A stretch of DNA of 64,000 bases from an uncultured Acidimicrobiales bacterium (GTDB lineage: Bacteria; Actinomycetota; Acidimicrobiia; Acidimicrobiales; SZUA-35), in assembly GCA_963803845.1 (NCBI GenBank), contig CAWDNZ010000004.1, positions 768,713-832,712 of the forward strand. Reading direction: 5' to 3'. The notes below the pieces were generated by a model. The model saw nothing but the letters and a program-made list of their open reading frames with translations, was not told the DNA's origin and searched no databases. Position 1 is the stretch's first letter; every line of letters begins with the position of its first letter. The position numbers and the translations under genes were made by a program. Below are positions 4,261 through 32,209 of the stretch, piece after piece.

Positions 4261-4295
4261 AACACCCGAAACGACGCCCGGTGAGGAGTCCGAGC

Positions 4296-15748: not shown

Positions 15749-15783
15749 GGTCATGGAGAGCCCGCCGCGGGATCTCCATGACC
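15749..15783. terminator. Strong hairpin between convergent genes (11-bp perfect stem)
   Basis: GGTCATGGAGA-gcccgccgcggga-TCTCCATGACC. There is no U-tract on either side, so function as a terminator is inferred from position only. Confidence 0.5.
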
Positions 15784-15926
15784 GCCCAGCCGCCGCCAAG
15801 CGGCGAGTGCTTTACGCCTCTGTTGCCTATTGTTACCCATAGTTGCAACCGTTGCGTAACCGAAGATCCTCATGCTTCTACCAGCAGTCGGAGAATTCGC
15901 CGTCCAGGAACTCTCACCAGCAAGTT

Positions 15927-18900
15927 CTATTTTGGTAGCAGTGCTTCCAAACCGGTGCCGGCCGCAATCGGCACGATCGAGGCCATATCGGGTGGCGAAC
16001 CCAACGCGTTCGCCAGGTCAAGACGGCTCTTCAGTCGCCACAGTGGCATCTCTAGTGAATCGGCCAGTTCCACCACGCGTCGCGCCGAATCCTCATCCAG
16101 TGGTCCATCGAGTTGCGCCTCGTATCGGTCGATCGGCCCCAGATTGGCCACCCCTGCTCCCACGATCAACGCATTTCCCCGAAGCGGGACGAACAACTGT
16201 CGTACCCGATCCACGAGCTCATCGTCGTTGCAGGCCGCCAGCACGGGCGCGACCAGCGCCACGGCGGCCAGACCATGGGCGGCGGGAGCCCCGAGCACCT
16301 TCCGGGTTACCAAGAGCGCTTTGCGGATGGCCCGGCTCTCCTCACCGCTGGCGTACAGCGAAACCGCATGAGCGGCCTTGAAGAGGAGACTCGAAGCATC
16401 GTCGGGCGGGGTGGTGTCGAACACGGGGATCAGATCCGCATGCGTCTCCTCGAGCCACATCAGAAAAAACTCTTGAGCGAGCCGCGTGGGCGCGGCGACG
16501 CTGATGGCGTAACGCTGCCCGTGGGCCAGGGCGCCGTCGGCGATCTTGCGAGCCGTGTCCCAATCGCCCACGGTGTAGTGATGCATGGACTCAAACAGTT
16601 GGGCGTGCCACTGCCGAAGCGGGAGCGAGAGCCGGGCACTGAGCGCGGCGAACTCGGCATTGGCATCGAGGGCCATCGCAGTGTCGCCAACCTGGTAGCG
16701 ATCTAACGCTCGCAGTTGGAGCAACGGCAGCCGCGACCGATCATCATCGGTGTCCAGCAACGCTCGTTCCACTCGTTCCAGACGTTCGGAAGGGGCGACG
16801 CCCACGTCGTTCGCCATTCGCCAGGCCACCACCGCAGCCGCCCGCTCCGATGCTGAGGTTGCCGCCTGCGCCGCCCGATCCACCCAGGTCCGAGCAACCT
16901 GTTCCCGACCAAGCAGGGACGCCTGGCGGGTGAGATGGATGGCCAGTTCGAATCGTCTGGACCGATCCACCTTGGTGAACGGAATGGCCGAGAGCTGGGC
17001 GAACCGCTCCGGGTCCCCATCGATGAGCTCGGCCTCCGGCAGGCCGGCGATTGCGGCATCCAAGGCAGAGCTCCAGTCGCCCGCAGCGAAGCAGGCACCG
17101 ATGATCTCGCTCCTGAGTTCGGCCGCCTCGGTCAGTGCACCCGTACGGGAGACCGCATCGGCGAACTTCGTGGCGTCCCTCATCTCCAGAGGAATGGACT
17201 CGTCCAGGCTGAGGGCATTCCGGTAGGCATCAGCCGCCTCACGAAAAGAACCGGCCGCATGCAGCAATCTTGCCGAACGAAGCTGGGATGCCCGTGCTTC
17301 GGCCGCCGGTACCGTTGGGAACGCCAGGAGATCATGGCGGGCCCGGCGATGCGGGTCGTCGCTGAGGTTTCGCGCCCGCAGATGGAGTTGCCGCAAACGC
17401 AGACCGCGTGTTGTGATAAGAAACTCATCCATCGCCAAGCGATGCGCAAATGCGATCTGATCAACACCGGTGGTCTCGACCATGAGACCGGTATCCAGCA
17501 GCTCGTCGATGATGTCCAGCAAATCATCGAACTCAACATCGCACATCTGCTCCAGGTCGCTGAGTGAACACTCCAGACCCAAAACCGCGGCGGCCACACC
17601 AACCGATTGGGCTGAGGTGCTCAGCTTTGCAACCTGACGGCTGAATACCTCGAAGGTCTGTCCCGTTCCGGCTGGCGGCAATCGCAGATTGCTCGGATCC
17701 AGGGTCTGGATCACTGCCCGAACTACGGTAGGGAGCCCCTTGGACTGCCCCAGGATCTCCTCACTCAGACCCCGGACAACCAGCGAGGACGCATGGGGAT
17801 AGGCCGAGGAAACCAGCAGCCCCACCTCGTCGAGGTTCAGCGGGGCGAGTACATGGGGTCGGATCCCAACCAGATCCTTCAACTGAGCGGCCAGTCGTTT
17901 GAACTCGGAACGCTCTACGTCGGACTGCCCTTCGAGCAAGAAACGCAGCGGAAACCCAAGTGACGAGCGGGCCAAGAACATGAGGAGATCCAACGACGCA
18001 GAGTCCAGGTTGTGGCAGTCAGCGATAACCACGGTGATCGGTCGCCCAGCGGCGATGGTGCTGAGCTCCTCTGCCACCGAGGACCACAGCACGGTCTGAT
18101 TGACGCCAGATCCTTCGAGACCGTCTCGGCTGATTCGACGACGAAGGCCGGGCAGGAACTTCAGGAACGGTTCATAGGTGAGCGACACACCTTCGGTGCA
18201 TGTGCCGAGCAGCACCCGTCCAAGCGGAGGTCCGGCCCGGTGAATCACTGCCGCCGTGAAGCCTCGCCGGTCCGAACCGGCGGGACCACCGAGGAGAACG
18301 ATGGCGGGATCCGCCCGGATCAACTCGGTCGCGACTTCTTGGACCGCCGCATCTCGAACAGCCGGCTGGGACTCGTCGACGTGTAGGGCCGTGGGCGTCG
18401 CAGCACTGGGTCCGGGGATTTCGACCTCGCCAGCAAGCTCTGCCGACGCAGCCGGACCGAACGCCCCTGAATCGATTTGTCGTTGGAGTTGACGGCCAGC
18501 CTGTCCTAGCTCGGTGCCGAAGGTTGAAACGATCTCGGATCGAACGAGATTAAGAAGTTCTTTGGCCGGGAGCAGAAATCCCGCGTTGGCGTGAAGCCTG
18601 GCGATCGAGCATCCGAGATCCTCTTCATACGGAGCTACGAGAACACGCCGGTAGAGCGAGCGCAGAACAGGGCGACGAAGCTCCAACCCCTGGCGAGCTG
18701 CCGTATGAATGAGGTCGGCCTGCGCTCGCTCGATTTCTCGGATCGATGCGTCGATGGTGAGCGTGGGGTCGACGCCCGGGTAGATCTCCGCCGATGAGAG
18801 AATCTCGCTGAAACGTTCTGAATCGCCCGAGGTCAGAGCCACACCCGACCGCGCCGCGATCTGCTGGGCATACCAGGCGTCCACCTGATGGTCGTCCAGC

Positions 18901-19181
18901 TCCAATCGATATCTTCCATCGACCAGTTTGATGAAATCGACCCCAGCACCCCGACGCAGACGCGACACGGTCATCCGTAAGGACGCCTGCCATTGGTTGG
19001 GCAAACGATCGGGCCAAATCTCATCGGCAAGAACGTCGGCGGTAAGGCCGCTGGGGCCCGAGGCCACCAGCAGTGCCAGTAGCTGACGCTGGGCGGGCTG
19101 CAGTCTGCGAAACCCGGAATCGGGGACGCGGACGCCGACCTCGCCGATTACCGAGACACGGATTGCATCAACGGTGACCAC
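15927..19181 (-). CDS. SARP-type winged-helix + BTAD + AAA_16-like NTPase (degenerate P-loop) + TPR-like helical repeats; AfsR/STAND-like regulator
   Basis: N-terminus IRVSVIGEVGVRV..LQPAQRQLLALLVASGPSGLTADVLADEIWPDRLP..LRMTVSRLRR...GRYRLEL (OmpR/SARP wHTH). IVLLGGPAGSDRRG sits at the Walker A position and VVIADCHNLDSASLDLL is Walker B-like. About 650 aa of helical repeats follow. The start was taken as the GTG at ~19181; the ORF-track start 19304 would overlap the upstream gene by 82 nt. Confidence 0.75.
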   Translation of the reverse strand: MVTVDAIRVSVIGEVGVRVPDSGFRRLQPAQRQLLALLVASGPSGLTADVLADEIWPDRLPNQWQASLRMTVSRLRRGAGVDFIKLVDGRYRLELDDHQVDAWYAQQIAARSGVALTSGDSERFSEILSSAEIYPGVDPTLTIDASIREIERAQADLIHTAARQGLELRRPVLRSLYRRVLVAPYEEDLGCSIARLHANAGFLLPAKELLNLVRSEIVSTFGTELGQAGRQLQRQIDSGAFGPAASAELAGEVEIPGPSAATPTALHVDESQPAVRDAAVQEVATELIRADPAIVLLGGPAGSDRRGFTAAVIHRAGPPLGRVLLGTCTEGVSLTYEPFLKFLPGLRRRISRDGLEGSGVNQTVLWSSVAEELSTIAAGRPITVVIADCHNLDSASLDLLMFLARSSLGFPLRFLLEGQSDVERSEFKRLAAQLKDLVGIRPHVLAPLNLDEVGLLVSSAYPHASSLVVRGLSEEILGQSKGLPTVVRAVIQTLDPSNLRLPPAGTGQTFEVFSRQVAKLSTSAQSVGVAAAVLGLECSLSDLEQMCDVEFDDLLDIIDELLDTGLMVETTGVDQIAFAHRLAMDEFLITTRGLRLRQLHLRARNLSDDPHRRARHDLLAFPTVPAAEARASQLRSARLLHAAGSFREAADAYRNALSLDESIPLEMRDATKFADAVSRTGALTEAAELRSEIIGACFAAGDWSSALDAAIAGLPEAELIDGDPERFAQLSAIPFTKVDRSRRFELAIHLTRQASLLGREQVARTWVDRAAQAATSASERAAAVVAWRMANDVGVAPSERLERVERALLDTDDDRSRLPLLQLRALDRYQVGDTAMALDANAEFAALSARLSLPLRQWHAQLFESMHHYTVGDWDTARKIADGALAHGQRYAISVAAPTRLAQEFFLMWLEETHADLIPVFDTTPPDDASSLLFKAAHAVSLYASGEESRAIRKALLVTRKVLGAPAAHGLAAVALVAPVLAACNDDELVDRVRQLFVPLRGNALIVGAGVANLGPIDRYEAQLDGPLDEDSARRVVELADSLEMPLWRLKSRLDLANALGSPPDMASIVPIAAGTGLEALLPK

Positions 19182-19222
19182 GGGACAAGTGTGCCGCGTT
19201 GTCGCTGGATCAGCACGTGCCG

Positions 19223-20044
19223 CTAGGAGGAGGATTCCTGACACGGAAGCAACGCCCGGAACCGGATGGAAGGAGATCGCCAGAGATCGCCGGGCATAAC
19301 CCACCGGCCGATCGCATCAGGAGCGGCCGGGCCGGGGTCAAACCCTCCCAGGGCGCCAACCACCACTCTGGCCGCCTCGATGAGCTGCTGACGATCAATC
19401 CGAGAACCGCGACCCCCCCGCAAGACCGGCACGGGTCCGATACTCATCACCTCCGCGGCCACTCGCTGGGAGATCTCCAGATCAACCACCAATCGATCGT
19501 GGTCGGCGCCGGAGTTGAAGGCGAAATACACAAACGACGAACAGGTGTGTGAAACCCTCCGGTTGGTCCATCGTTCCGTCGCCGCCAGACTGGCTCGCCG
19601 GACGACTCGGGCGGCAAGTTCAGGATTGCCATCGCCGGCATGCCAACGAGTTAGGGCAACGAAGCCGGCGAGAACGGCATCGTCCCATGCATAGGCGTTT
19701 CGGCTTCCGATGAAATACCGGGCCCACTCGATCGCCCCCGCCCGGTCCACCTCGTCGCTCAAGCGGGCGACCGCAAGATACGTGTATCCGCCCTGAACCT
19801 GAGCCATGGTCCGTGTAACAAAGCGATCGCCATCTACCTCCACGATGCCCATTGTCCTGCCGTCTGCGGAGTCAACGTAGAGCGCGATCCCAACGTGCCG
19901 CCAGAGTTCACCAGCGCTCGAACATAGGCTCTGAAGGAAGCCGGGACGGGAACAGAACACGATGTCGCCCTCCCTGACCTCGGAAACGTGGATCATCGGT
20001 AGCCGCGCCACCGACTCCGGAAGCGCAGGCGCGGCGGTGGTCAT
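19223..20044 (-). CDS. Permuted papain-like amidase (YaeF/YiiX, C92-like; His before Cys)
   Basis: GDIVFCSRPG...LWRHVGIALYV...GIVEV....SHTCSSFVYFAF shows the permuted NlpC/P60 order. The ATG at 20044 overlaps the upstream stop (ATGA). Confidence 0.65.
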   Translation of the reverse strand: MTTAAPALPESVARLPMIHVSEVREGDIVFCSRPGFLQSLCSSAGELWRHVGIALYVDSADGRTMGIVEVDGDRFVTRTMAQVQGGYTYLAVARLSDEVDRAGAIEWARYFIGSRNAYAWDDAVLAGFVALTRWHAGDGNPELAARVVRRASLAATERWTNRRVSHTCSSFVYFAFNSGADHDRLVVDLEISQRVAAEVMSIGPVPVLRGGRGSRIDRQQLIEAARVVVGALGGFDPGPAAPDAIGRWVMPGDLWRSPSIRFRALLPCQESSS

Positions 20045-20910
20045 AGAGCCACCAATTCCGTTGTGGCGGAAACCAGCGGTTGCGACGAAGGCGCCTCCAA
20101 TGCGGCGTAGCCAGCCCATTCAAACGGAGGTCGATCACTCCGCAACGCCTGGACAGACCGGAGAGCTTCATCCGGGCTCAGTCCATTGGCGATCGCCGCC
20201 ACCAAGGCATCCCCCAGCGGCTCGCAATGCCGATCCTCCACATCCCAAAGGGTCACGACGGCCGCAGTGATTCCGCGGCTTCTGACGCGGGGCAACAGGT
20301 CCGTGGTTCGACAGCCCATCAACAGCAGAATGTCAGAGCTTCCCACCGCCACCTCCTTGAGCAGCGTCTGAATCTCCTCCTGGTGTCCGTCCAATCGATG
20401 GATTCGAGCATTGGAATACCACCGATGGGGTCGATGGGGTCCCGTGAGTCTCGGTCGATACGCCGTTGCCTGCGCCTCGCCAACATCGTCGCCTAATGGC
20501 GCTGCTCCACCAACGAGTTGAACCGTGACAGCGCTCAGATGGACCAGAGACTCACCGCTTGCAGTACACCGGGCAGTGGCGATGGGCAGTCGGATAAGTT
20601 CATACGGCACCCGGACAACGAGCGACGGGACGCCACCCAGGTACCGGGCCAGCGGCTCCACCAGTCGGCTCCATGTGCTGGTCAGCAACCGTTCCACAAC
20701 TGCATTGCGGGCGGCCACTGCGTAGGTGTACTCCGAGCACGCATGTACCCGGTCCACTTCGGCGACTTTCTCCAGCAGATCCTGAATCCCGAGCCCAGGC
20801 AGCGGGATAGTCAGCCCCGTCCTACCGTCATCTCCGGCCGAGAGTTCCCAGCGCCAACTCGTGTGCCGGTCCCCTGGGGCCAACAAGGTTGCGATGGGTC
20901 GCCCGCTCAT
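20041..20910 (-). CDS. Minimal CHAT-domain (caspase-like, clan CD) protein
   Basis: C-terminal half: IHRLDGH (His), ILLLMGCRT (Cys), then GITAAVVTLWDVEDRHCEPLGDALVAAIANGLSPDEALRSVQALRSDRPPFEWAGYAALEA. This follows the CHAT C-terminal signature (vvasLW.v.D....f...l..G.s..eALr.Aq..l....P..Wa.f.l). I do not recognise the N-terminal ~150 aa. Confidence 0.6.
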   Translation of the reverse strand: MSGRPIATLLAPGDRHTSWRWELSAGDDGRTGLTIPLPGLGIQDLLEKVAEVDRVHACSEYTYAVAARNAVVERLLTSTWSRLVEPLARYLGGVPSLVVRVPYELIRLPIATARCTASGESLVHLSAVTVQLVGGAAPLGDDVGEAQATAYRPRLTGPHRPHRWYSNARIHRLDGHQEEIQTLLKEVAVGSSDILLLMGCRTTDLLPRVRSRGITAAVVTLWDVEDRHCEPLGDALVAAIANGLSPDEALRSVQALRSDRPPFEWAGYAALEAPSSQPLVSATTELVAL

Positions 20911-20984
20911 GGCTCAGGGCGGCGGAGGATGCTGCTCATGCGACAAGATACTAGTAGCTAGTAGCAACACGGATCCGGACCCCA

Positions 20985-21121
20985 GGAGCCTGCGGCGCGA
21001 TGGGAGCTGGCTGAGAGATTGCTGCTCACGATGTCAGCGCACCCGGGAGCCTGGGCGCAATGGGAGCTGGCTGAGAGATTGCTGCTCACGTTGTCAGCGC
21101 ACCCGGGAGCCTGCGGCGCGA
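20985..21121. repeat. 60/61-bp tandem repeat (~2.3 units) formed from the outer arm of the palindromic element
   Basis: TGGGAGCTGGCTGAGAGATTGCTGCTCACG(A/T)TGTCAGCGCACCCGGGAGCCTG(G/C)G(C)GCG(C)A(A) occurs at 21001-21060 and 21061-21121, preceded by a partial unit from 20985. Confidence 0.9.
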
Positions 21122-21412
21122 TGGGAGCTGGCTGAGAGATTGCTGTCCCTCTGGGAGGCGTTCAAGCGCCACGCAGGCTTTCGCCTGCCCGGCCTACAAC
21201 AGATCCTCGGTTACTGGTTCGCTTAACTACTCAACGGGCCACATCCCTCCGGGGGTTCTCAACACCCAGGCGAAGCTAAGCACTTTGAGCAGTTCAAGCT
21301 CAAAATCACACAACCAGTTAGTGCAGCGCCGGAGGCGAGAGCCTCCGTGGCGCCTGAACGGCCCCCGGAGGGACAGCAATCATGCTCCCAGCTGACATCG
21401 CCCCGGAGGGAC
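21089..21412. repeat. Long imperfect palindrome, copy B of the interspersed repeat family
   Basis: Arms GGAGCCTGCGGCGCGATGGGAGCTGGCTGAGAGATTGCTGTCCCTCTGGGAGGCGTTCAAGCGCCACGCAGGCTTTCGCCTGC and GCGCCGGAGGCGAGAGCCTCCGTGGCGCCTGAACGGCCCCCGGAGGGACAGCAATCATGCTCCCAGCTGACATCGCC. The centre shares CCTACAACAGATCCTCGGTTACTGG..ACTCAACGGGCCACATCCC with copy A. Confidence 0.85.
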
Positions 21413-21421: not shown

Positions 21422-22612
21422 TTAGAGCATTTCGATGATGGTGGCGTTGGCGAGGCCGCCGCCTTCGCACATCGTCTGCAAACCGTATTTGCCGCCGGTC
21501 CGTTCGAGTTCGTGCACCATGGTGGTCATGAGTCGGGCGCCGGAGCCGCCCAACGGATGGCCCAGGGCGATCGCTCCCCCGTTGGGATTCACCTTGTCCA
21601 TGTTGGGATGATGCTCTTTGGCCCAGGCCAAGACCACAGAGGCAAACGCCTCGTTCACTTCGAAATGGTCGATGTCATTCATCGTGAGGTTGGCCTTCTT
21701 CAAGACCTTCTCGGTAGCAGGGATGGGGCCGGTGAGCATGGTGACCGGATCCACGCCGGCGAGGGCGAAGCTGTGGAACTTGGCCTTGGGCGTGAGGCCA
21801 AGCTCGGCGGCCTTGCTGGCGCTCATGATGAGCAGCGCCGATGCTCCGTCGGTGATCTGGCTGCTGTTGGCGGCCGTGACCTTGCCATCCTCCTTGAACG
21901 CCGGCTTCAAGCTCGCGATCTTTTCCATGATGGGTTCACGAAGGCCACCGTCTGTCGTCACCATCTGGCCGGTCACTGTGACCTTGCCGGTGTCTCGGTC
22001 TCGGATCTTTTCGGCGACGGGAACGATTTCGGCATCAAATCGGCCCTCATCCCGGGCCTGGATCGCCAACCGTTGGGACCGGAAGCCGTACTCGTCCAGA
22101 TCTTGCCGTGAGATATCCCACTTGTCGGCGATCATCTCGGCCCCAATGCCTTGGCCGACCAAGCCCCCGTCTTCGGCGTAACGCTCCTGCATTGCGTCGG
22201 TGAAGGCGAAGCCGGTCTGTTTCAACATCTGCGTCGCACCCATTGGCACGAAACTCATCACTTCTACTCCGGCGGCGATGACTACGTCGTACGCTCCGGC
22301 CATGACACCCTGGGCGGCAAAGTGAGCCGACTGTTGTGAGGAGCCACATTGACGATCGATTGTGGTAGCCGGGACCGACTCGGGCCAACCTGCGGTGAGA
22401 ACGGCGTTTCGTCCCACATTGAGCCCTTGGGCTCCCACCTGCATGACACAGCCCATGATCACATCGTCCACGAGCACCGGATCCAGGCTGTTCCGTTCGG
22501 CGATCGCTTTGAGCACTTCGGCGGCGAGATCGGCTGGGTGCCAGCCCGACAGCTTCCCAAAACGTTTGCCCATCGGGGTGCGAACGGCATCAATGATTAC
22601 GGCTTCTTCCAT
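21422..22612 (-). CDS. Acetyl-CoA C-acetyltransferase (thiolase)
   Basis: [13 protein letters not shown], active-site [27 protein letters not shown] and CEGGGLANA motifs. Confidence 0.92.
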
Positions 22613-22663: not shown

Positions 22664-23260
22664 CTACGGGTTCGCCACAGACACTCCACACCGTTCGAGG
22701 AAATTGGCGATCATGGTCTTTCCGCCCACGGTGAGAACAGATTCGGGATGAAACTGGACCCCCTCCACCTCGAGATCCCGGTGACGCATCCCCATGATGA
22801 CGCCATCCGCAGTAGAGGCGGTGACCTCCAGAGACGCCGGGAGGTCATCGGCCCGGACGATGAGTGAATGGTAGCGAGTGGTCTGAATTGGGCTGGACAA
22901 ACCGGCGAACACCCCGGTGCCGTTGTGTTCAGTGTCAGAGGTCTTGCCGTGCATGAGTTCTGGGGCACCGATCACGGTGCCGCCGTACAACTCCCCGATC
23001 GCTTGGTGCCCCAGACAGACACCGAGAACCGGTACCGAGCCTGCGAATGCTCGAATGGCTTCGATGCTCACGCCAGCAGCTGCGGGCCGACCCGGACCAG
23101 GAGAGATAAGCACGCCATCAGGTTTCATTGCCACGAGTTCCGGAACGGTTGCGACGTCGTTGCGAACCACGATCGGCGTGGCCCCGAGCTCGCCGAGGTA
23201 TTGCACGAGGATGTAGACGAACGAGTCGTAGTTGTCGATCACCAGAATCTTGGGAGCCAC
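22664..23260 (-). CDS. trpG: Anthranilate/aminodeoxychorismate synthase component II (glutamine amidotransferase)
   Basis: [33 protein letters not shown] (Cys), GVQFHPES. Its position beside crgA/pknB mirrors the mycobacterial Rv0013 context. Confidence 0.9.
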
Positions 23261-23346
23261 GAGGCCAACGGTATCGCTTCGGAGTAGGTGGTTTCGCCGT
23301 TCCCGATGCCGCGCCCACTTCTCCCCGACCGGCTACGGTTTTGGGC

Positions 23347-23631
23347 GTGGCACGTCCTGACCCCAGCAAAAGCCGAGTGACGCCGAAGGGCACCCAGCCC
23401 GAAGGCCAGGTGAGCGAGCGGTCCATTCGCCCGGAACCAGTTGCACCGCTTCCCCCTTCGCCCATGTATGTCCCCGCGATCATGGTGATCGGGTTTGTGG
23501 GAGGTCTCATGATGATCCTGGGCAACTACCTCTTTACGAGCGACGCGCTGGGCACACCGAGCAACTGGTACCTGTTGGGTGGATTGGGCCTCGTCCTCGT
23601 GGGAATTCTGGCGGCTACGCAATACCGCTGA
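23347..23631 (+). CDS. crgA: Cell division protein CrgA
   Basis: Basic N-terminus (ARPDPSKSRVTPKG) followed by two TM segments (YVPAIMVIGFVGGLMMILGNYLF, NWYLLGGLGLVLVGILAATQY). Start is ambiguous: GTG at 23347 or GTG at 23377. Confidence 0.7.
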   Translation: MARPDPSKSRVTPKGTQPEGQVSERSIRPEPVAPLPPSPMYVPAIMVIGFVGGLMMILGNYLFTSDALGTPSNWYLLGGLGLVLVGILAATQYR

Positions 23632-23845
23632 GCAACCTCACGGCGACCAACTGCCGCGAAAAGGAGCGATCCGCGCGACCACCCGCACGCACGGCGCGAA
23701 GTGCTCGAGAAACTTCCCGGTTTGGGTAAAAATCCTGTTTTCGAGGTAGCGCCTGCCGGTCGGTCTGTCGTAGGATCTCATGAGCAAGGGGGCACCGTTA
23801 CGAACTGGTGACGGAAACCCTTCGGGATTGTTACATCCCACAGGG

Positions 23846-23887
23846 TTATCCACCACTGTGGAAATCCTGAACCGCTAGTTTTCCACA
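23846..23887. promoter_or_regulatory. Cluster of three DnaA-box-like 9-mers
   Basis: TTATCCACC (23846-23854), TGTGGAAAT (23857-23865, i.e. ATTTCCACA on the other strand) and TTTTCCACA (23879-23887). All fit TTWTNCACA with at most one deviation, and the first two form an inverted pair. Confidence 0.5.
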
Positions 23888-23952
23888 GGCGTATTCGCAG
23901 GTGAGCGAGGTTTTCCCCATACTTGCGAACAGCTCATTGGACAAGTAGCGTG

Positions 23953-24393
23953 TCACAGCACGTCGTCCAGGTTAGTTGTCAGCACCATGGGCTCCGAGCA
24001 GTGCCGAGGGGGCTCTGGCACCTGGTCATTCGCCAATGTCAGCCGGAGTTCCGTTCCGCAGATTTCGCAACGGTAGGTAAGTTTTACCCGGCGTAGCTCT
24101 CCGGGCGGTGGAGCGTCGGGCACAGGGCGGGCGAACGCCCCGATCACCGCTACTCCGGCCATGAAAAGGGCATAGGAAACCGCCACTGCGACCACCGTCC
24201 GGACCAGCCCGAATCCTGCGAGAATCAAGACCAGGGCGGCGACCAGGGCGACAACTCGCACTCGAGAACGCCGCCGCCGCTGAACCTCCGCGTCATGGGC
24301 TGATGCGCCACCGATGATGGAATCGTCGGCATCGATGAAATCGGGAAAATCGGTGGTCGGTTCGAACTCCGAGCCCGGCGGTTGTTCGTCCAC
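23953..24393 (-). CDS. Hypothetical membrane protein with C-terminal Cys-rich (zinc-ribbon-like) tail
   Basis: 146 aa. Acidic N-terminus, two TM segments (VVALVAALVLILAGFGLV, VSYALFMAGVAVIGAF), then CEICG...HC. Directly downstream of pknB. Confidence 0.5.
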   Translation of the reverse strand: MDEQPPGSEFEPTTDFPDFIDADDSIIGGASAHDAEVQRRRRSRVRVVALVAALVLILAGFGLVRTVVAVAVSYALFMAGVAVIGAFARPVPDAPPPGELRRVKLTYRCEICGTELRLTLANDQVPEPPRHCSEPMVLTTNLDDVL

Positions 24394-24423
24394 CGGCCCA
24401 TCGTAGACCCAGATCGTCGGGAA

Positions 24424-26406
24424 CTACCCGCCGTCGGCGGGCGGGTCCGTAGCGGGAGGCTGGGTTGTTGGAGGCTGGGTTGGCGGCGGCGGCGCCAGTT
24501 CTACACCGACCCGAATAGTCACCGTGGACCCAGTGACCAGGGCCGTATTCCCGGCCGGGTTTTGGGATAGGACCACGCCGGCATCGGGTGAACCATTTGG
24601 CACGTCGACCAGCTCCACGAAGGGTGCGAACCCGGCCGCTTCCAAAGCGTTTTGGGCCGATGCTTGATCCAGTCCCACGACCGGTGGAACCACGGCTTCC
24701 GGTGGACCGGTGGAAACGATCAAAAGAATCACGCGGTCAATGGACACCGGCGTGCCGGCGGCGGGATCGGTACGTATCACCAGACCCTCCTGGACCGTCT
24801 CCGATGCTTCCTGCACCAGCGTGGGGTTTGGCAAGCCGGCTCGACCCAACTCATTCGAAGCCACGATCACGGTCATGTTGGCTACCTCGGGGACATCCAC
24901 CTGGTCCGGGCCACTGGATACGATGAGATTGACCTCACTGCCGCGATCCAACTCCTGATTGGGCGCCGGCTCGGACCGGATGACAACGTTCTCCTCGATA
25001 TCGCTGCTCGGTTCGATGCTGAAATCAACAATGAAGCCGTCTTCGTTCAAACGCCGAGTTGCCTCATCCAACTTGAACCCGGAAACATCCTGGAGCACGA
25101 CTTTCTGTGAATCCTGAGCCACGGTGATCAGGACGGTTCCGCCCCGCTCGATCGGAGTTCCGGCCAGCGGAGACTGAGCGGTCACCGTGCCCGGCGCGAT
25201 ACCGGGCTCGGCGGGTTGGAAGTCGGTGTCCACGAAGAGCCCAAGCTCTCGGAGAATGGCTTCGGCCTCCGCCTCGGTTCGTCCCGTGACGCCGGGAACT
25301 TCCACGGTGTCCGACGCAGCGTCAGATTCACCATCGCCAAAATTGACATAGATGTAGGAGGCGATCCCGGCCACGCCGAGGATCATGAGCACCAGCGCTA
25401 TGAGGAAGAGACCATTGCGCCGGGCCGGTTCCACGTATTCAACGGGAGCGCCAGGCGGAACCATGGCCGGTGCGGCGATCGACGTGGCGGCCGCCGGGAG
25501 CATCGACGTTGCGGCGGCGGCGACGGCGACGTCGGCGGTGATCGCTTTTCGATTCGGGACCGGAAGTACCGAACCATCGGTGGAACTTCGTAACTCCGCC
25601 CGCAGCTCTTCGGCCGATGCGAAGCGATCGTGGGGCGCTTTGGCCAGCAGCCGATCGATCACCGCACCGAGCCGGCCCGGCACGTTGGGATTGATTTGGG
25701 CAGGGGTAGGCGGCTCATCCTGGACGTGTTTGTAGGCGATCGCCACCGGTGATTCCCCGGAGAAGGGCGGTTGGCCGGTGACCATCTCGAAGAGGACAAC
25801 ACCAAGGCTGTACAAATCGCTCCGTGGATCGACCTGTTTCCCTTGAGCCTGCTCTGGCGAGAAATATGTTGCCGTCCCCATGACCGACCCGGTCTGGGTG
25901 AGATCGTCACCTCCGCCAAACGCACGAGCGATACCGAAGTCGGTGACTTTCACTTGTCCGGTCGGCGTGATCAGAATATTGCCGGGTTTCACATCGCGGT
26001 GAATGGTTCCGTTGCGGTGAGCGAATCCCAGCGCGGCGGCGGTGTCGATCGCTATCTCGGTGGCTCGATCAGGATGCAGCACTCCTTCGGTGCGCAGCAC
26101 GTCGGCCAGACTCCGACCCTCCACGTACTCCATCACGATGAAGTACGTCTGGTCGTATTCTCCCCAATCGTAAACCGCCACAATGCTGGGGTGGTTCAAG
26201 TTGGCTGCGGCCTGGGCCTCTCGTCGGAAGCGCTCAACGAACAGTGGTTCCGATGCGAATTGTGGGAAGAGCACCTTCACGGCAACGGGTCGGTCCAGCA
26301 GTTGGTCATGCGCCAAAAAGACATCGGCCATACCGCCCCGGGCCAGACGACGGTGCAGTTCATAGCGTCCGTTTAGGACGGGGCGGGGTTTGGACGATTC
26401 AGTCAC
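24424..26406 (-). CDS. pknB: Ser/Thr protein kinase with extracellular PASTA repeats
   Basis: Hanks kinase motifs (AVKVL, HRDVKPGNILI, DFGIA, SPEQA). One TM segment, four PASTA-like repeats, and a Pro/Thr-rich tail. Confidence 0.92.
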   Translation of the reverse strand: MTESSKPRPVLNGRYELHRRLARGGMADVFLAHDQLLDRPVAVKVLFPQFASEPLFVERFRREAQAAANLNHPSIVAVYDWGEYDQTYFIVMEYVEGRSLADVLRTEGVLHPDRATEIAIDTAAALGFAHRNGTIHRDVKPGNILITPTGQVKVTDFGIARAFGGGDDLTQTGSVMGTATYFSPEQAQGKQVDPRSDLYSLGVVLFEMVTGQPPFSGESPVAIAYKHVQDEPPTPAQINPNVPGRLGAVIDRLLAKAPHDRFASAEELRAELRSSTDGSVLPVPNRKAITADVAVAAAATSMLPAAATSIAAPAMVPPGAPVEYVEPARRNGLFLIALVLMILGVAGIASYIYVNFGDGESDAASDTVEVPGVTGRTEAEAEAILRELGLFVDTDFQPAEPGIAPGTVTAQSPLAGTPIERGGTVLITVAQDSQKVVLQDVSGFKLDEATRRLNEDGFIVDFSIEPSSDIEENVVIRSEPAPNQELDRGSEVNLIVSSGPDQVDVPEVANMTVIVASNELGRAGLPNPTLVQEASETVQEGLVIRTDPAAGTPVSIDRVILLIVSTGPPEAVVPPVVGLDQASAQNALEAAGFAPFVELVDVPNGSPDAGVVLSQNPAGNTALVTGSTVTIRVGVELAPPPPTQPPTTQPPATDPPADGG

Positions 26407-26461
26407 AGCGTGCCAAGGGTAGTGAACGATTGGGTAACTAGGTGGTCAACAGGTCCGGTCG

Positions 26462-27991
26462 TCATAGAAGACCGAAGTAGCTGCTCACGAGCTCCCGAGC
26501 AATGGGTACGGCAGTTCCCCCGCCGGTCTGGTTTGGATGATCTGCGTCGGCGGCAACGAACACTGCGAACGCTATGTCAGGTGCAAATCCTTTGTCGCCA
26601 GCGAACCCGATCACCCAGGCGTGCGAGCTCTCCAAATCCTCTCCTACCTGGGCGGTTCCAGTTTTTGCCCCCAATTCCAGACCCGGGGTTTGGAGCCCCC
26701 TGGCCGTCCCTTCGGTGACGGCCAGCTTCATCATGGAGCGCAACTCGAGGGCGGTCTCCGGTGCCATTGCGGTGCGCCAAGGCTTCGGATCGATCGACTC
26801 CACAATCGTGCCGTCGGAGGAAAGAACTTTGCTCACTACATGCGGTGAGGGAACCACGCCACCGTTGGCAACTGCGGCCGCTACGAGACTCATCATGAGC
26901 GGGGAGGCGGCCACGCTGTTTTGACCAAGGGCGGATTGAGCGAGGATGGCACTGTTTGCGTAGACCCCGGCGGGGATCTCCTCGCTCGGCGCTCGCAGTT
27001 GCTCTCCGTAATCGGTGGGGAACACACTGGCCACAGCGCCGCCGATATCCAACGGGGGTTCCTCATTGAACCCGAAGGCCTGGGCGGTATCCACCATGGC
27101 CTCGGGGCCAACTCGCTCCGCCGCAAGGTAGGCGAAGCTGGTGTTGCACGATGTGGCGAGCGCTTCGGCCAGGGTGCCGCCGCAGGTACGCCCCCCGAAA
27201 TTGCGGATCGGCCGGTTACTGACCAGAGGCGGGAAGTATTCATTGGTCGGGTTCACGGTGGTGGCATCGGAACTCGCTCCACTGGCCGGACTGAACGTGG
27301 TCAGGATTGCAGCCGCCGTGACCACTTTGAACGACGACCCAGGAAAGTACACGTCGGCGATTGCACTGGGTCGTCGAGGATTGCCTTTCTGCGTATTCAA
27401 GGCTCGGGACGCCGCCTCGGCTTCGGCACCGTCATGGCTGGCCAGCAGCGAGGGATCGAACGAAGGCGAACTGTAGAGGGCCACGATCGCGCCCGTGTCG
27501 GGCTCGATCATGACAACCGAACCCACTCGATCGCCAAGAAGCTCCGCCGCCTCCGACTGCAGAGCGTGGGAGATGGACATCACCACATCGCCCGGTTGCC
27601 CTGCGCCGCCCAGGAATTCGTTCAAACCGCTCAATCGCAATTCCGCCGAGCGGCCCGACAGCGAATCGTTGTAGGCCTTCTCCACCCCTGATGCACCAAG
27701 ATTGAACGAGTAGAAGCCCGCTGAATGTGCGTAAAGCGCACCTTCTGGGTAGAGCCGTTGGTAGTCGAACGCCGAGCCAAAGACGCCCTCGGACTCCGCC
27801 ACCACAACACCGTCCGAAGTGAGTATTTGACCTCTGGGCCGATTGAAGTCACGAAGAATCGAGCGGGCGTTGTCCGGGTTGTTCCGAAGTTCAGCGGCGT
27901 CCAGTACCTGAACGCGACTGACCTGCACCATCAGCACGCCAAAACTGAGCAGGAGGACACCCAAGAGTCTCCTGAGTGACCGATCGATCAT
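26462..27991 (-). CDS. pbpA: Class B penicillin-binding protein (transpeptidase)
   Basis: SxxK as GSSFK, and KTGTA; N-terminal anchor. 4-nt overlap with rodA. Confidence 0.9.
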   Translation of the reverse strand: MIDRSLRRLLGVLLLSFGVLMVQVSRVQVLDAAELRNNPDNARSILRDFNRPRGQILTSDGVVVAESEGVFGSAFDYQRLYPEGALYAHSAGFYSFNLGASGVEKAYNDSLSGRSAELRLSGLNEFLGGAGQPGDVVMSISHALQSEAAELLGDRVGSVVMIEPDTGAIVALYSSPSFDPSLLASHDGAEAEAASRALNTQKGNPRRPSAIADVYFPGSSFKVVTAAAILTTFSPASGASSDATTVNPTNEYFPPLVSNRPIRNFGGRTCGGTLAEALATSCNTSFAYLAAERVGPEAMVDTAQAFGFNEEPPLDIGGAVASVFPTDYGEQLRAPSEEIPAGVYANSAILAQSALGQNSVAASPLMMSLVAAAVANGGVVPSPHVVSKVLSSDGTIVESIDPKPWRTAMAPETALELRSMMKLAVTEGTARGLQTPGLELGAKTGTAQVGEDLESSHAWVIGFAGDKGFAPDIAFAVFVAADADHPNQTGGGTAVPIARELVSSYFGLL

Positions 27992-29358
27992 TGGCCGAAA
28001 TACGTGGGGTCGGCGCTGCTGACGACGGAATGGCGTCGGACTGCGGAATCAGAAATACGAATGAGGATCGCCAAGATTATGTAGTTGGCCACGAGCGACG
28101 AGCCGCCGTAACTCACGAACGGAAGCGTGACTCCGGTGAGCGGGAGCAACCGAGTGACACCACCCACGATCACGATTACCTGGAACCCCAGCAGTGCGGT
28201 GAGTCCGCCCGCCACCAGCTTCTCGAACGGATCGGATGCGACCATCGCCACCCGGAAACCAGCGCCAACGAACAGCATGAAACAGACGAGGATCGCCGCC
28301 GCCCCCACCAGACCCAGCTCCTCACCGATAGCGGCGAAGATCATGTCGGTGGTGACCGCCGGAATGACGTTGGGTGTCCCCTCCCCCAGGCCGGTACCCA
28401 ACAAGCCACCGTCCGCCATGGCGAACGCCGCCTCAGCAACCTGAAAACCCGAGTCATTCACGTCCGCGAAGGGATCCAACCAGGCCGCTACTCGCCGCTG
28501 CACGTGCCCGAACATCTGGTACGCCACCGCGGACCCCGCCATGAAAAAGCAGAAGCCACCCAGCACATATGCCAGCCGAGAGGTGGCGAGATACATCATC
28601 ACTACGAAGAGCGTGAAGAAAAGGAGCGATGATCCCAAGTCTCGCTCCGCCACCATGACCAGGAGCGCCACCGCGACGGCCAGCCCGAGGGGCCCGAAAT
28701 GCCGAAGGTCGGGGACGTGGAGGCCTGCCACCCGGCGGGTGCTGATGGTCAGGAGTTCCCGTTTATCCACCAGATAGCCGGCAAGAAACATGGTCAGAAC
28801 GACCTTCGCAAACTCTCCAGGCTGAATGGTGAAGAACCCGAGCGAGATCCAGATTCGAGCTCCACGGATTTCCTGCCCGATGAACGGGAGTAGCGGCAAT
28901 AACAGGAGGGCTGTGCCGGTGAGAGCCATCAGATAGCGATACTGCTCGAGAGTTCGGACGTCGCGGAACACGACCAACGTGGTTGCAAACGCTGCGAGAC
29001 CAACGAGTGTCCAAACCGATTGCCGGGCAGCAAAATTCTCGTTGAGTCGAGCGATCATCACGTAACCGATACCGTTGAGAAACGCCACGAGCGGCAGGAG
29101 CGTGGGCTCGGCCATAGGCGCCAGCCGACGTACCACTACGTGGGCGGTCCCCAAGAGGCCCAGAACAAGAACAAGAAAGGGAATGACGTTTGGCGGCGTT
29201 TCGGATCGTGTAGCAAGGGCGGCGAGGCCGAACGCCGCAGTGGTCAGCAGACCAGCGCCGATCAACAGGGTCAGTTCGACTCCACGGGGGGATCCCATAT
29301 GCAGCCTCGAAACCCGGGCCGAGGGACCCGGATGGCTCCCGGGAGAGGACGTGATCAT
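27988..29358 (-). CDS. rodA: FtsW/RodA/SpoVE family peptidoglycan glycosyltransferase
   Basis: Polytopic membrane protein with the conserved C-terminal LLPLTGVTLPFVSYGGSS. The ATG at 29358 lies 7 nt after the pstP stop. Confidence 0.9.
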   Translation of the reverse strand: MITSSPGSHPGPSARVSRLHMGSPRGVELTLLIGAGLLTTAAFGLAALATRSETPPNVIPFLVLVLGLLGTAHVVVRRLAPMAEPTLLPLVAFLNGIGYVMIARLNENFAARQSVWTLVGLAAFATTLVVFRDVRTLEQYRYLMALTGTALLLLPLLPFIGQEIRGARIWISLGFFTIQPGEFAKVVLTMFLAGYLVDKRELLTISTRRVAGLHVPDLRHFGPLGLAVAVALLVMVAERDLGSSLLFFTLFVVMMYLATSRLAYVLGGFCFFMAGSAVAYQMFGHVQRRVAAWLDPFADVNDSGFQVAEAAFAMADGGLLGTGLGEGTPNVIPAVTTDMIFAAIGEELGLVGAAAILVCFMLFVGAGFRVAMVASDPFEKLVAGGLTALLGFQVIVIVGGVTRLLPLTGVTLPFVSYGGSSLVANYIILAILIRISDSAVRRHSVVSSADPTYFGQ

Positions 29359-29365
29359 GCGACCG

Positions 29366-30661
29366 CTACTCCGCGGTGCGGACGAGGGAGAGTTCAAGCT
29401 GCTCCACGAACGCCTGGGCATCGGCGAGTGAACCGAACACTGGAGTCTGGCCCACCTGATCCCGAGAAGCCGGCTTCAGGTCGTTCACGTCCAGGCCGGT
29501 GGTCTCGACAGCTTGGGGCTCGATGAACAGCAGGCCGCCCGGTCGACCTCGGAAGATCACCACCTCACTGGCCCGGGACTCCACAAACCATGCGTTTCGG
29601 CCATAGGCGGTGAAACCACCGATTCCCAATCCAACGAGTATGAAGAACCCGAGTAGGAACAACAAACCCCGAAGCCGACGCCCTGACCGTGGCGGCGAGG
29701 CGGAAACCACCGGGATCTCCTCGGTTGGGATCTGATTGGCGGCCCCCTCATCGTCCTCATCCGCCGCTTTCTCGGCCACCGGATCGGTGTGGTCCTGGGA
29801 GGGGGGTGGTGAATCGTCAGGCTCAGGATGGACAACTGGGGTGAAGAGGCTACTGGCCTCTGCATCGGCATCGCCGAGGGTCTCGAGGTCGAGCGGCGCA
29901 ACTTCGGCGTCGCCCGCAATCGCAACCGCCGATTCCGGTCCAGCGATGGTGGGGGCGTCATCAAGCACGCGGACGATTACCACCGTGATGTTGTCGTTTC
30001 CACCGTTTTGGTTGGCACGTTCTATGAGACGCTCTGCGGCCTCATCGAGGTTGTCAGCATTGGCAATTATTGTTGCCAGCACATGGTGATCCACCTCGTT
30101 GAAGAGCCCATCGCTGGCGAGCAGGATGGCGTCACCCTGCCCGATCGTTAGGTCGAAGATGTCAACTTCGGGATCTTCTCCGATCCCGAGAACGCGGGTC
30201 ACCACGTTCCGATGGGGATGATCTCGAGCCTCGGCCTCGCTGATCTTTCCCGACCGCACCAACTCCTGCACGAGAGAGTGATCCCTGGTGATCTGCTCTA
30301 GCTCACCACCGCTGAAGAAGTAGGCCCTGCTATCGCCAACGTTGGCGATGGTGACCGAACGGCGTTCGGGCCGCAGCAGGGCCGCAACCACGGTGGTGCC
30401 CATGTTGGCCATACCCGTCCGAACGGCGGCCGCCAACACCTCGCGATTGGCTAGCTGAATGGCCGAGATCATGTCATTCGCATCCCGGAGCAGGCCGAAT
30501 TGTTGGAGCTGATCCACCGCGGTCTCCGCCGCCAGTTCACCGCCGGCATGACCGCCCATACCGTCGGCCACAGCCACAAATGTGGGCGTGACGAGGAACC
30601 GATCCTGATTGGTCTCTCTGATCATGCCCTGATCGGTGGCAGCGGCGATCTCGAATCGCAT
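29366..30661 (-). CDS. pstP: PP2C-family Ser/Thr phosphatase with TM and extracellular tail
   Basis: TDQGMIRETNQD, VADGMGGHAGGE, LLASDGL, GGNDNITVV. Confidence 0.9.
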   Translation of the reverse strand: MRFEIAAATDQGMIRETNQDRFLVTPTFVAVADGMGGHAGGELAAETAVDQLQQFGLLRDANDMISAIQLANREVLAAAVRTGMANMGTTVVAALLRPERRSVTIANVGDSRAYFFSGGELEQITRDHSLVQELVRSGKISEAEARDHPHRNVVTRVLGIGEDPEVDIFDLTIGQGDAILLASDGLFNEVDHHVLATIIANADNLDEAAERLIERANQNGGNDNITVVIVRVLDDAPTIAGPESAVAIAGDAEVAPLDLETLGDADAEASSLFTPVVHPEPDDSPPPSQDHTDPVAEKAADEDDEGAANQIPTEEIPVVSASPPRSGRRLRGLLFLLGFFILVGLGIGGFTAYGRNAWFVESRASEVVIFRGRPGGLLFIEPQAVETTGLDVNDLKPASRDQVGQTPVFGSLADAQAFVEQLELSLVRTAE

Positions 30662-31140
30662 CAGCGCACCTCCATCACGGTGCTGCCCACTTGCACCCGG
30701 GACCCAGAATTGACTGCCACTGGCCCGGTGACCTTTTGTCGATCCACATACGTTCCATTTGTGGACCCTAGATCCGAGACCAGAAGCCCGTCCGGCGTAA
30801 TCGCCACTCGGGCATGCTGAGACGAGACGAAAGTGTCGTCCAGCGTGATATCGCAGGCCGCTGACCGGCCGATGGTGAGCTGGCCGTCTACTTCAAAGAC
30901 CAATCCGGCATGGCTCAGCGGCTCCACGATCACCACGGAGGGCTTCTTCGCAGACTTCTTGGAACGGCGTGTCCGGCGCTCGTTGTTAGTGGTGGTGGCG
31001 GCGGGAGACGGAACCGCTTGCCAGACCGAGGACGCCACGCGAGCAAAGAAGAACCAAACCAACGCCAGGAACCCGAGGCGGAGAAGGGTGAGAATGGCGT
31101 CGGACACTGTGCCCGATCGTAGTTGTTCCGGGAAGGCCAA
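30661..31140 (-). CDS. fhaB: FHA-domain protein FhaB/FipA
   Basis: N-terminal TM segment, then an FHA core LTIGRSAACDITLDDTFVSSQHARV...DLGSTNGTYV. 1-nt overlap (TGATG) with pstP. Confidence 0.88.
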   Translation of the reverse strand: MAFPEQLRSGTVSDAILTLLRLGFLALVWFFFARVASSVWQAVPSPAATTTNNERRTRRSKKSAKKPSVVIVEPLSHAGLVFEVDGQLTIGRSAACDITLDDTFVSSQHARVAITPDGLLVSDLGSTNGTYVDRQKVTGPVAVNSGSRVQVGSTVMEVR

Positions 31141-31192
31141 GGGCTCCGCCTGCTCCGACCGCTTTGCAGTGCGATGTTTGAACTACCGTTAC

Positions 31193-31858: not shown

Positions 31859-31879
31859 CAGGGAAACCGGGCCGGTCAG

Positions 31880-32209
31880 CTAGTGACCAACCACGTCGGC
31901 GGTGTCGGGGCGAGACCGCAGATACTCCGCGGCGAAAGCGCACAACGCCACGATGGTGCGATCGGTTTGCCGTAGGTCTTCCACGATGCCGGCCATGAGT
32001 TCGTCGGCAAACCCATTCCCGCGGTAAGGCAAGAGTGTCTCAACGTGAGGCACCACCACGACGCCGCCGCTCTGCAGCGAGTAGTTGGCATAACTCCGGA
32101 GTGGAGCCTCAGGATCTCCTAGATCGAGGAGCTCAAATCGGCCAGCGGGAAGGTTGTCCCTCACCACCAGTTGGGTCTGCTCGGCGTCTTCAGGAGTTCG
32201 CAGTGTCAC
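31880..32209 (-). CDS. Small GNAT-family N-acetyltransferase (YjdJ-like)
   Basis: 109 aa. VPHVETLLPYRGNGFADELM....ALCAFA pattern. Confidence 0.65.
   Translation of the reverse strand: MTLRTPEDAEQTQLVVRDNLPAGRFELLDLGDPEAPLRSYANYSLQSGGVVVVPHVETLLPYRGNGFADELMAGIVEDLRQTDRTIVALCAFAAEYLRSRPDTADVVGH

Follow-up and report, generated by a model that had tools for sequence, protein, structure and literature searches.

A stretch of 64,000 nucleotides from an uncultured Acidimicrobiales bacterium (contig CAWDNZ010000004.1, positions 768,713 to 832,712; hereafter the window) carries three adjacent genes, g1, g2, and g3, which comparison with related loci indicates are a genuine conserved module. The first (20041–20910, minus strand) is predicted to encode a compact stand-alone CHAT cysteine protease of the separase/HetF type with a caspase fold (289 amino acids), the second (19223–20044, minus strand) a divergent YaeF/YiiX-like permuted NlpC/P60 (PPNE) thiol enzyme (273 amino acids), and the third (15927–19181, minus strand) an AfsR-like protein that joins a SARP head to a NOD (nucleotide-binding oligomerization domain) as well as to a helical-repeat tail (1084 amino acids). 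Each component can be traced to a known family, as a member or as a divergent relative; these families are CHAT, the YiiX-like PPNEs, and the AfsR-type SARP-STAND proteins.

The three open reading frames (ORFs) all lie on the minus strand within 15927–20910, and the GC (guanine plus cytosine) content across them is uniform with that of the surroundings. The ATG of g2 (20044) overlaps the g1 stop codon in an ATGA, and the ORF layout bears out the compact co-directional unit, with this overlap, that had been proposed in an earlier annotation of the same DNA (the sequence-only reading). The start of g3 is placed at the GTG at 19181, 41 nucleotides past the g2 stop, on the basis of a conserved N-terminus and a database gene call of 1084 amino acids; both favor this codon over the GTG at 19304 that opens the ORF, which was rejected as the start. 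A thiolase gene (21422–22612) flanks the trio upstream, and a convergent 2-hydroxyacid dehydrogenase gene lies downstream.

The clade to which the window belongs consists of about nine species-level lineages, all of them metagenome-assembled genomes of Acidimicrobiales, and in this clade the trio is always found at one chromosomal site, in the order fhaA-fhaB-pstP-rodA-pbpA-pknB-x-crgA-trpG/pabA-(thiolase and/or acyl-CoA ligase)-trio-2-hydroxyacid dehydrogenase-MBL-PAC2-sodN. Taken alone, conservation within the clade could be mere synteny. Two further loci, L025 and L026, contain the full trio (a CHAT gene from the distant small-CHAT part of the g1 family, a g2 homologue, and a full-length g3 homologue) in entirely different neighborhoods; by tblastn the products are ~37% (g2) and ~31–32% (g3) identical to those of the window, and an hhalign comparison of the g3 profile with the L025 protein returned a probability of 100 and an E value of 2e-91, with 32% identity over 1060 columns, SARP head included. 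The genes keep the same order and the same tight packing (a 4-nucleotide overlap or a short gap) in every relative for which there is enough sequence, and the identities of g1, g2, and g3 drop in parallel from locus to locus, from 87/93/96% through 71/84/89% and 38/63/55% to 26/37/32%. Since the trio is retained in L025 and L026 with different flanks, and since its members diverge together, we take the module to be real; the functional unit claimed in the sequence-only reading is supported by this linkage. In L023/L024, with a CHAT gene of the same distant group, only the g1–g2 pair is present, without g3 and followed by pentose-phosphate genes, and the protein adjoining the L023 CHAT gene matches the g2 profile with a probability of 99.9 (hhalign E 4e-35). 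The existence of g1–g2 without g3 in L023 therefore suggests that the core of the module is the enzyme pair, two translationally coupled thiol enzymes of predicted cytoplasmic location.

The simplest objection is that there is no system at all, g3 being an ordinary SARP regulator and g1 and g2 its unrelated neighbors. The nearest non-orthologous relatives of g3 are indeed ordinary large SARPs, some of them encoded beside biosynthetic genes (as in L018), and no CHAT or C92 genes were found near these distant relatives. Such an account would have to explain the persistence of one gene order in two lineages with entirely different flanks, the start/stop overlaps or very short gaps between the genes, and the common divergence of the three proteins, and we consider it most improbable. 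Nor does g3 look like the conventional SARP of an adjacent biosynthetic cluster, as no biosynthetic genes are present in any of the four independent contexts sampled.

All of the named members of the g1 family belong to Acidimicrobiales, and the trio has been seen so far only in that order, the distant lineages being 24–37% identical. A scan of a genome collection with the g2 profile, which relied on very specific peptide patterns and under-counts the wider family recovered by HMMER, identified 5 species. Metagenome contigs were also scanned for empty sites, with the flanking PAC2 protein as a guide. Of the four loci recovered, one has a full trio, two break off in the 3′ portion of g3, and the remaining one does not extend across the site. 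A fourth conserved component was sought and rejected: the unassigned ORFs that flank the trios in L025 and L026 show no relationship with one another or with the window.

When compared with close relatives, g2 and g3 display low ratios of nonsynonymous to synonymous substitution rates (dN/dS of 0.08–0.10 and 0.07–0.085, respectively), g1 displays values of 0.22–0.32, and the flanking genes are mostly at 0.02–0.07, with a few pairs up to ~0.13. The synonymous divergence (dS) of the trio genes equals that of the flanking genes. Low dN/dS, together with dS equal to that of the flanks, therefore indicates that the trio genes are functional, held under purifying selection, and vertically inherited with their surroundings.

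The assignment of g1 to the CHAT proteases, made in the sequence-only reading from a His/Cys pair in the motifs IHRLDGH and LLLMGCRT, stands. Pfam CHAT (PF12770, clan CD) matches g1 at 29.3 bits, above the cut-off of 24, in an alignment restricted to the C-terminal ~60 amino acids; it also matches eight of eight g1 orthologues (best E 3e-10), and distant family members score 39–63 bits. In a 13-sequence family alignment that extends down to 24% identity, the putative catalytic residues His176 (20383–20385, minus strand; DGH) and Cys200 (20311–20313, minus strand; GC[RSDE][ST]) are invariant, as are W222 and V224 of the WDVED stretch (W222-x-V224). Only 24 residues separate the His from the Cys. 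When the g1 profile was compared with PDB, a weak match (E 0.2) to the catalytic-Cys segment of separase aligned LLMGC and TLWDVxDR. A caspase/hemoglobinase fold is predicted on these grounds; the AlphaFold2 (AF2) model, built from 5 sequences, has a mean confidence score (pLDDT) of 39.

An exhaustive HMMER search for g1 among 1.84 billion representative proteins returned five orthologue clusters at E < 1e-30, and with them additional small CHAT proteins (~200–310 amino acids) that are 24–28% identical and align over their full length. A hidden Markov model (HMM) of the family alignment retrieves ~24 clusters at 228 bits or more, as against 97 bits at most for generic CHAT proteins, and the g1 family would appear to be a small, distinct CHAT subfamily of ~24 clusters. 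In longer proteins, the beginning of the CHAT domain is matched weakly by the N-terminal half of this HMM (i-E 2e-10 to 3e-3). It therefore seems that g1 consists of one compact CHAT domain, standing alone apart from a short extension at its N-terminus, and that the unassigned N-terminal domain of ~150 amino acids described previously is mostly the first half of the CHAT domain rather than an unrelated unit. The g1 polypeptide, at 289 amino acids, has no repeat region and no TPR repeats; TPR-like repeats are found in a separate protein, g3.

The second gene was less accessible to profile searches. No match to g2 was found in Pfam (Peptidase_C92, PF05708, included, at E ≤ 10), NCBIfam, or PADLOC, and 4 of 15 g2 orthologues give sub-threshold matches to Peptidase_C92 (best E 0.005). 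An AF2 model of g2 has a pLDDT of 63 overall and 85–92 in the sheet core, and the five best Foldseek matches to this model in PDB, the only ones at E ≤ 0.001, are all to YiiX (2if6) or BcPPNE (3kw0), with a probability of 1.0, E values of 3.6–6.1e-4, and target-normalized TM-scores of 0.46–0.58. These are the two solved C92 proteins. A profile search of PDB with g2 has 3kw0 as its sole match, and the GD, His, and Glu positions are aligned in it. The residues His50 (19895–19897), Glu69 (19838–19840), Tyr118 (19691–19693), and Cys168 (19541–19543; all minus strand) are invariant down to 33% identity, as is the order GD..WRHVG..TCSSF, in which His, Glu, and Tyr all precede the Cys. This is the permuted order recognized in the sequence-only reading, and it holds despite the missing Pfam match. 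BcPPNE has a Cys154/His49/Glu64 triad and a conserved Tyr (PMC3142127), to which the putative catalytic residues of g2 correspond. Fold and motif order together indicate that g2 is a divergent YiiX-like permuted NlpC/P60 enzyme.

What such an enzyme might act on is suggested by its relatives. The S1 pocket of PPNEs is hydrophobic, YiiX has a fatty acid as a ligand, and related proteins are phospholipases or acyltransferases; the published evidence is that the family targets fatty-acyl linkages rather than peptidoglycan (PMC3142127, PMC12994826). By analogy, g2 is more likely to be an acyl- or lipid-directed enzyme than the cell-wall amidase proposed earlier. Its C-terminal RWxxPGDLWR...R segment is conserved and ends in a strand equivalent to the core beta6 of PPNEs, and the idea that this motif is a cleavable inhibitory tail was rejected on that account. 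Judged by eye, the N-terminal sequence has no evident signal peptide or lipobox.

The third protein is built, in order, of a winged helix-turn-helix (wHTH; ~18897–19166), a BTAD-like region (18477–18884), a variable linker (18357–18476), an AAA_16-like NOD (17382–18356), and a conserved C-terminal TPR-like region that we regard as a candidate sensor (15930–17381; all minus strand). The linker, residues ~236–275, is hypervariable and gap-rich and lies between conserved blocks. The family profile of g3 matches the SARP structure of AfsR (8hvr) at an E value of 4e-5, there is a partial NCBIfam AfsR match over residues 23–151 (E 3e-11), and Pfam Trans_reg_C falls below its threshold (19.2 vs 26.2). 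Residues 46–600 align by BLASTP with P0034, a SARP in which Trans_reg_C, BTAD, and AAA_16 are all Pfam-verified; Pfam BTAD (PF03704) has no match on g3, and residues ~100–235 align with the BTAD of P0034 (131–276) at ~25% identity. Beyond its close orthologues, the relatives of g3 are ordinary large SARPs with Trans_reg_C, BTAD, and AAA_16, at 24–29% identity. AAA_16 scores a sub-threshold 18.5 bits in the window protein and 50–61 bits, above threshold, in the distant orthologues. The TPR character of the tail is weakly supported: one motif, at residues ~637–665, matches consensus TPR proteins at E values of 0.005–0.03, and TPR_2 is found in six of nine orthologues (best E 2e-5), in all cases below the cut-off. 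The C-terminal ~480 residues make up a domain that is specific to the family and strongly conserved, and the wHTH is the best-conserved part of the protein, even at 32% overall identity. Of the SARP/BTAD-AAA-TPR architecture originally claimed for g3, then, the SARP-STAND assignment is retained, the TPR assignment is tenuous, and the NTPase is degenerate.

This degeneration is seen in the clade of the window and not in L025 or L026. In place of the Walker A consensus GxxGxGK[ST] the window protein has GPAGSDRR (18264–18287, minus strand), which aligns with GEPGIGKS of P0034, and none of the nine window-clade orthologues with coverage here has the Walker A lysine; a tenth sequence, which is without the N-terminal wHTH, still contains the motif. 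The Walker B sequence is VVIAD (18018–18032, minus strand) where P0034 has LVLDD, and its acidic pair, DD, is replaced by AD in the window and by TR, HQ, GR, HH, GA, SG, or EE in orthologues from the clade. In the distant orthologues both motifs are intact, Walker A being GQAGSGKT in L025 and GPSGSGKS in L026, and Walker B LLVDD and VFVDD, respectively. Because the distant orthologues have canonical motifs, the dead P-loop appears to be a secondary loss in the window's clade. Having lost the lysine of Walker A and the acidic pair of Walker B, the g3 of the window genome cannot, by prediction, work as a canonical NTP-driven STAND protein, and the STAND switch proposed in the sequence-only reading does not apply to it. 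The orthologues with dead (window clade) and intact (L025, L026) P-loops are a natural experiment on STAND regulation without nucleotide switching. The other domains of g3 are under purifying selection.

How might these proteins work together? We tentatively favor a reading that we would place somewhat below an even chance, in which g3 is a sensor-regulator coupled to a g1–g2 protease/deacylase pair that processes an acylated substrate. Like the STAND transcription factors AfsR, MalT, and GutR, g3 would sense a ligand or partner through its C-terminal repeat domain, and its conserved SARP head would then activate a promoter, most simply one ahead of g1. The enzymatic output, provided by g1 and g2 together, would be directed at an acylated peptide, an acylated protein, or a lipid, with g1 cutting the peptide and g2 removing or transferring a fatty-acyl group, and the released acyl chains could feed the β-oxidation enzymes encoded just upstream. 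In the window clade, control would be exerted without an ATP switch, either by the binding of a ligand or partner or by cleavage of the variable linker between the BTAD-like region and the NOD. A transcription factor is suggested because the wHTH is the best-conserved part of g3, because a -10-like element and a short upstream ORF precede g1, and because there is a precedent in AfsR, whose SARP domain needs no other part of the protein to bind DNA and activate transcription, the NOD and TPR domains being auto-inhibitory until ATP binds (PMC10936776). An acyl or lipid substrate is suggested because the PPNE triad and Tyr are conserved in g2, because PPNEs have a hydrophobic pocket, and because a β-oxidation gene lies upstream.

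The last of these points is drawn from the gene neighborhoods. In three of the four independent contexts, a gene of a β-oxidation family is located directly upstream of g1, on the same strand and 100–150 nucleotides away. The position is filled by the thiolase gene in the window, by an AMP-binding acyl-CoA ligase gene elsewhere in the window clade (L008, 7240–9054; L014, 7070–9112), by an acyl-CoA dehydrogenase gene in L026 (8641–9870), and by an enoyl-CoA hydratase gene in L023 (5041–5868). Among roughly 150 other listed genes, such families make up ~2%, a count of annotations in a small sample. These neighbors fit an acyl-directed g2 and hint that the module is tied to fatty-acyl metabolism. 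The sequence-only reading had described the flanking genes as unrelated metabolic genes; it placed the thiolase and 2-hydroxyacid dehydrogenase correctly, and the word "unrelated" is doubtful for the thiolase, given that β-oxidation neighbors recur.

Several points weigh against a sensor-regulator coupled to a protease/deacylase pair. The β-oxidation adjacency fails in L025, and β-oxidation genes are common in Actinomycetota. Regulator genes are often divergent from their targets, but g3 follows g1 and g2 within one operon, and no SARP-type direct-repeat box was found upstream of g1, where no heptamers spaced by 11 nucleotides are common to all loci. With the P-loop lost in the window genome, the ATP-dependent mechanism of AfsR cannot simply be transferred to g3. 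The fold of g1, given the pLDDT of its model, is predicted from sequence alone. In other settings, systems that combine CHAT with STAND are for the most part predicted to act in conflict, and g1 evolves 3–4 times faster than g2, g3, and the flanking genes, which would also fit an arms race.

These last considerations lead to an alternative that we regard as unlikely, namely that the trio functions in conflict or abortive infection, with g3 as a STAND-type sensor of an invader. On sensing it, g3 would switch on the CHAT protease g1, and g1 would then activate the lipid-directed g2, or work alongside it, so that g2 damages the membrane as an effector. The logic would resemble that of bacterial gasdermin/protease or Avs systems. 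CHAT and caspase-like proteases with STAND or TPR sensors are typical of immune systems, both predicted and proven, with Craspase and DdvA as precedents, the trio is patchily distributed across Acidimicrobiales in differing contexts, the dN/dS of g1 is raised, and the distant orthologues have an intact NTPase. Phospholipase toxins occur among the permuted NlpC/P60 enzymes (PMC12994826). A search of PADLOC-DB v2, however, returned no match for any of the three proteins at E ≤ 1, and our searches found no plasmid or viral relatives of the trio. The four independent contexts are all housekeeping or metabolic, with no mobile or defense genes nearby, and throughout the window clade each species has the trio at a single fixed core site, with dS equal to that of its flanks. 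The sensor tail, with a dN/dS of ~0.07, is strongly conserved and not diversifying; Walker A and Walker B are lost in the window clade; the C-terminus of g2 is the core beta6 of PPNEs, unlike a cleavable inhibitory tail; and the N-terminal domain of g3 is a DNA-binding head, not a death effector. In the window genome, the module looks like a resident unit of the core chromosome, regulatory or metabolic in role, and not a mobile anti-phage weapon. The defense or abortive-infection role raised in the sequence-only reading is thus possible and unsupported, given the fixed core site, the matching dS, and the want of plasmid and viral relatives in our searches.

Systems that couple a caspase-like protease to a STAND or TPR protein are already known as a kind. 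A related possibility, to which we give slightly less weight and which we consider rather unlikely, is that the trio is an immune or cell-fate type of cascade, composed of a SARP-headed STAND sensor, a mini caspase-like protease, and a lipid-directed papain-fold enzyme, in which the protease either clips the sensor so that the SARP head is set free or switches on the acyl enzyme so that the membrane is remodeled or damaged, and that this cascade has been domesticated to ATP independence in the lineage of the window.

The loss of the P-loop also invites the thought that g3 is a protease-gated transcription factor. Here g1 would clip the linker between the BTAD-like region and the NOD, freeing the SARP head, with g2 in the role of a co-factor or of a second output. 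Cleavage of this sort would replace the ATP switch lost in the window clade, where the ATP-binding motifs have disappeared and yet every domain is under purifying selection, and the hypervariable linker at residues ~236–275 lies between conserved blocks. The CHAT protease Craspase provides a precedent, in its action on Csx30, for the proteolytic release of a transcription regulator. DdvA provides another (PMC11506125), and the arrangement would suit the AfsR precedent, in which the SARP domain is active alone and inhibited by the NOD and TPR domains until ATP binds (PMC10936776). The proposal is nevertheless pure conjecture; no cleavage motif is known. The distant trios keep an intact P-loop and yet carry g1, and in L023 at least, where g1 and g2 occur without a g3 nearby, g1 must have another substrate. 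We rate this explanation as decidedly unlikely.

Whichever of these accounts applies, the trio can be set beside four kinds of known system. With the AfsR-type SARPs of Streptomyces (8hvr), g3 shares the order of an OmpR-type wHTH, a helical domain in the BTAD position, an AAA_16/NB-ARC-like NOD, and a helical-repeat tail. It differs from them in that it is only 24–29% identical to ordinary SARPs, the window protein gives no Pfam match for BTAD or TPR, the C-terminus of ~480 amino acids is conserved and specific to the family, and the window clade has degenerate Walker A and B motifs; it is, moreover, co-operonic with two thiol enzymes and has no adjacent biosynthetic cluster. The TPR-CHAT proteins (Craspase Csx29 of type III-E CRISPR, DdvA, separase, and HetF) resemble g1 in the caspase-fold His/Cys pair and, for separase, in the LLMGC and LWDVxDR motifs; as in Craspase and DdvA, g1 is linked to a transcription regulator and has a partner with helical repeats. 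Unlike TPR-CHAT proteins, g1 and its relatives stand alone at 215–305 amino acids with no TPR arm, the repeats and the DNA-binding domain being on a separate STAND-like polypeptide, and the trio has neither the CRISPR context of Craspase nor the sigma/anti-sigma context of DdvA.

The YaeF/YiiX-like C92 enzymes (2if6, 3kw0), which are related to LRAT/HRASLS and Tox-Act1/TseH, share with g2 the permuted His...Glu...Tyr...Cys order, an N-terminal beta-sheet subdomain, a helical C-terminal subdomain, and a final beta-strand. In contrast to them, g2 falls below the Pfam threshold, is ~75–90 amino acids longer, with extra helices at residues ~120–255, has a RWxxPGDLWR motif of its own, appears cytoplasmic when the N-terminus is judged by eye, and is always paired with a CHAT protease. 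With the anti-phage STAND and gasdermin operons (Avs, bNACHT, bGSDM) the trio shares a general logic, in which sensing falls to a repeat domain, the NOD has a P-loop, and the effector is separate from a caspase-like protease. It departs from these operons in its DNA-binding head, its core syntenic site, the dead P-loop of the window genome, and the missing PADLOC match, and its candidate effector would be a papain-fold acyl enzyme and not a pore former.

We did not find described, in PADLOC or in the searchable literature, an obligate pair of a mini-CHAT protease and a permuted NlpC/P60 enzyme coupled to a SARP-headed STAND protein, nor a lineage in which the SARP-headed STAND of such a trio has lost its P-loop. 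The earlier suggestion that the combination is undescribed agrees with this result; no paper on it was found, and none of the three proteins has a counterpart in PADLOC-DB. The module links two enzyme families of little-known physiology and places an AfsR-type regulator outside antibiotic biosynthesis. The pairing of g1 with g2 supplies a hypothesis about substrate (acylated peptides or lipids that feed β-oxidation) and one about regulation (a SARP head, possibly gated by proteolysis). One limit is taxonomic: the module is restricted to uncultured Acidimicrobiales, which are seldom sampled.

Genes for the cell wall and cell division are found in the vicinity. The cluster fhaA-fhaB-pstP-rodA-pbpA-pknB-crgA lies near the trio in the window, at ~23000–33000 as judged by synteny with L001 and L006; a PASTA protein and a Ser/Thr kinase are encoded near the L025 trio (15826–19064), and a YkuD L,D-transpeptidase near that of L026 (16250–17428). 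AfsR is a substrate of Ser/Thr kinases. The proximity of the trio to such genes may be due to chance.

Upstream of g1, ~70 nucleotides ahead of the ATG are conserved in close relatives. A promoter-proximal block (20940–20975, minus strand) contains a -10-like TAGTAT at 20948–20953 that ends 8 nucleotides before the ATG of a short upstream ORF (uORF), and an element of this (T/C)CTAGNAT type can be aligned in each of the nine species that make up the window clade. A simple sigma-70 scan upstream of g1 found nothing, so that the -10-like element rests on conservation only; besides the -10-like CTAGNAT, the region contains short lineage-specific repeats. The uORF (20907–20939, minus strand) encodes MSSILRRPEP in 10 codons, and its TGA overlaps the g1 ATG. 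Its length and overlap are kept in six to seven species (L001, L002, L005, L021, and L008, with 11 codons in L010), and the peptide sequence diverges between them, which suggests a candidate leader peptide whose own transcript is leaderless or nearly so and whose translation is coupled to that of g1. An Rfam search of the window detected only six tRNA genes (4375–4447, 32923–33006, 39840–39926, 40221–40309, 41767–41840, and 55220–55293), and no riboswitch or other known RNA near the trio.

The spacer between the thiolase gene and g1 is 511 nucleotides long and contains a tandem array and long imperfect inverted repeats. Both this array and the hairpin at 15749–15783, which the sequence-only reading had listed as flanking features of the unit, are real. 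The array (20981–21145) consists of 2.7 copies of a 60-nucleotide unit with 94% matches, the inverted repeats are a pair of imperfect 77-nucleotide arms, and a 31-mer, TCCCTCCGGGGGCCGTTCAGGCGCCACGGAG, resembling repetitive extragenic palindromic (REP) elements, is present in three copies in the window and also in the relatives L001 and L002. These dispersed intergenic repeats were located at 20981–21145, 21110–21409, 21343–21373, 4167–4197, 4198–4223, and 4337–4367. The tandem array and the REP-like element were rejected as parts of the module, as the repeat is dispersed (copies at 4167–4367) and L002 and L010 lack it in the corresponding spacer; both are lineage-specific insertions.

The hairpin, with arms GGTCATGGAGA and TCTCCATGACC, lies between the convergent g3 and 2-hydroxyacid dehydrogenase genes. 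The intergenic region folds with a z score of -3.8, and none of 200 shuffled sequences folds as well. At least one arm sequence is present in the close relatives L005, L019, and L020, and both arms only in L020. The hairpin is likely to be a bidirectional terminator that marks the 3′ end of the unit.

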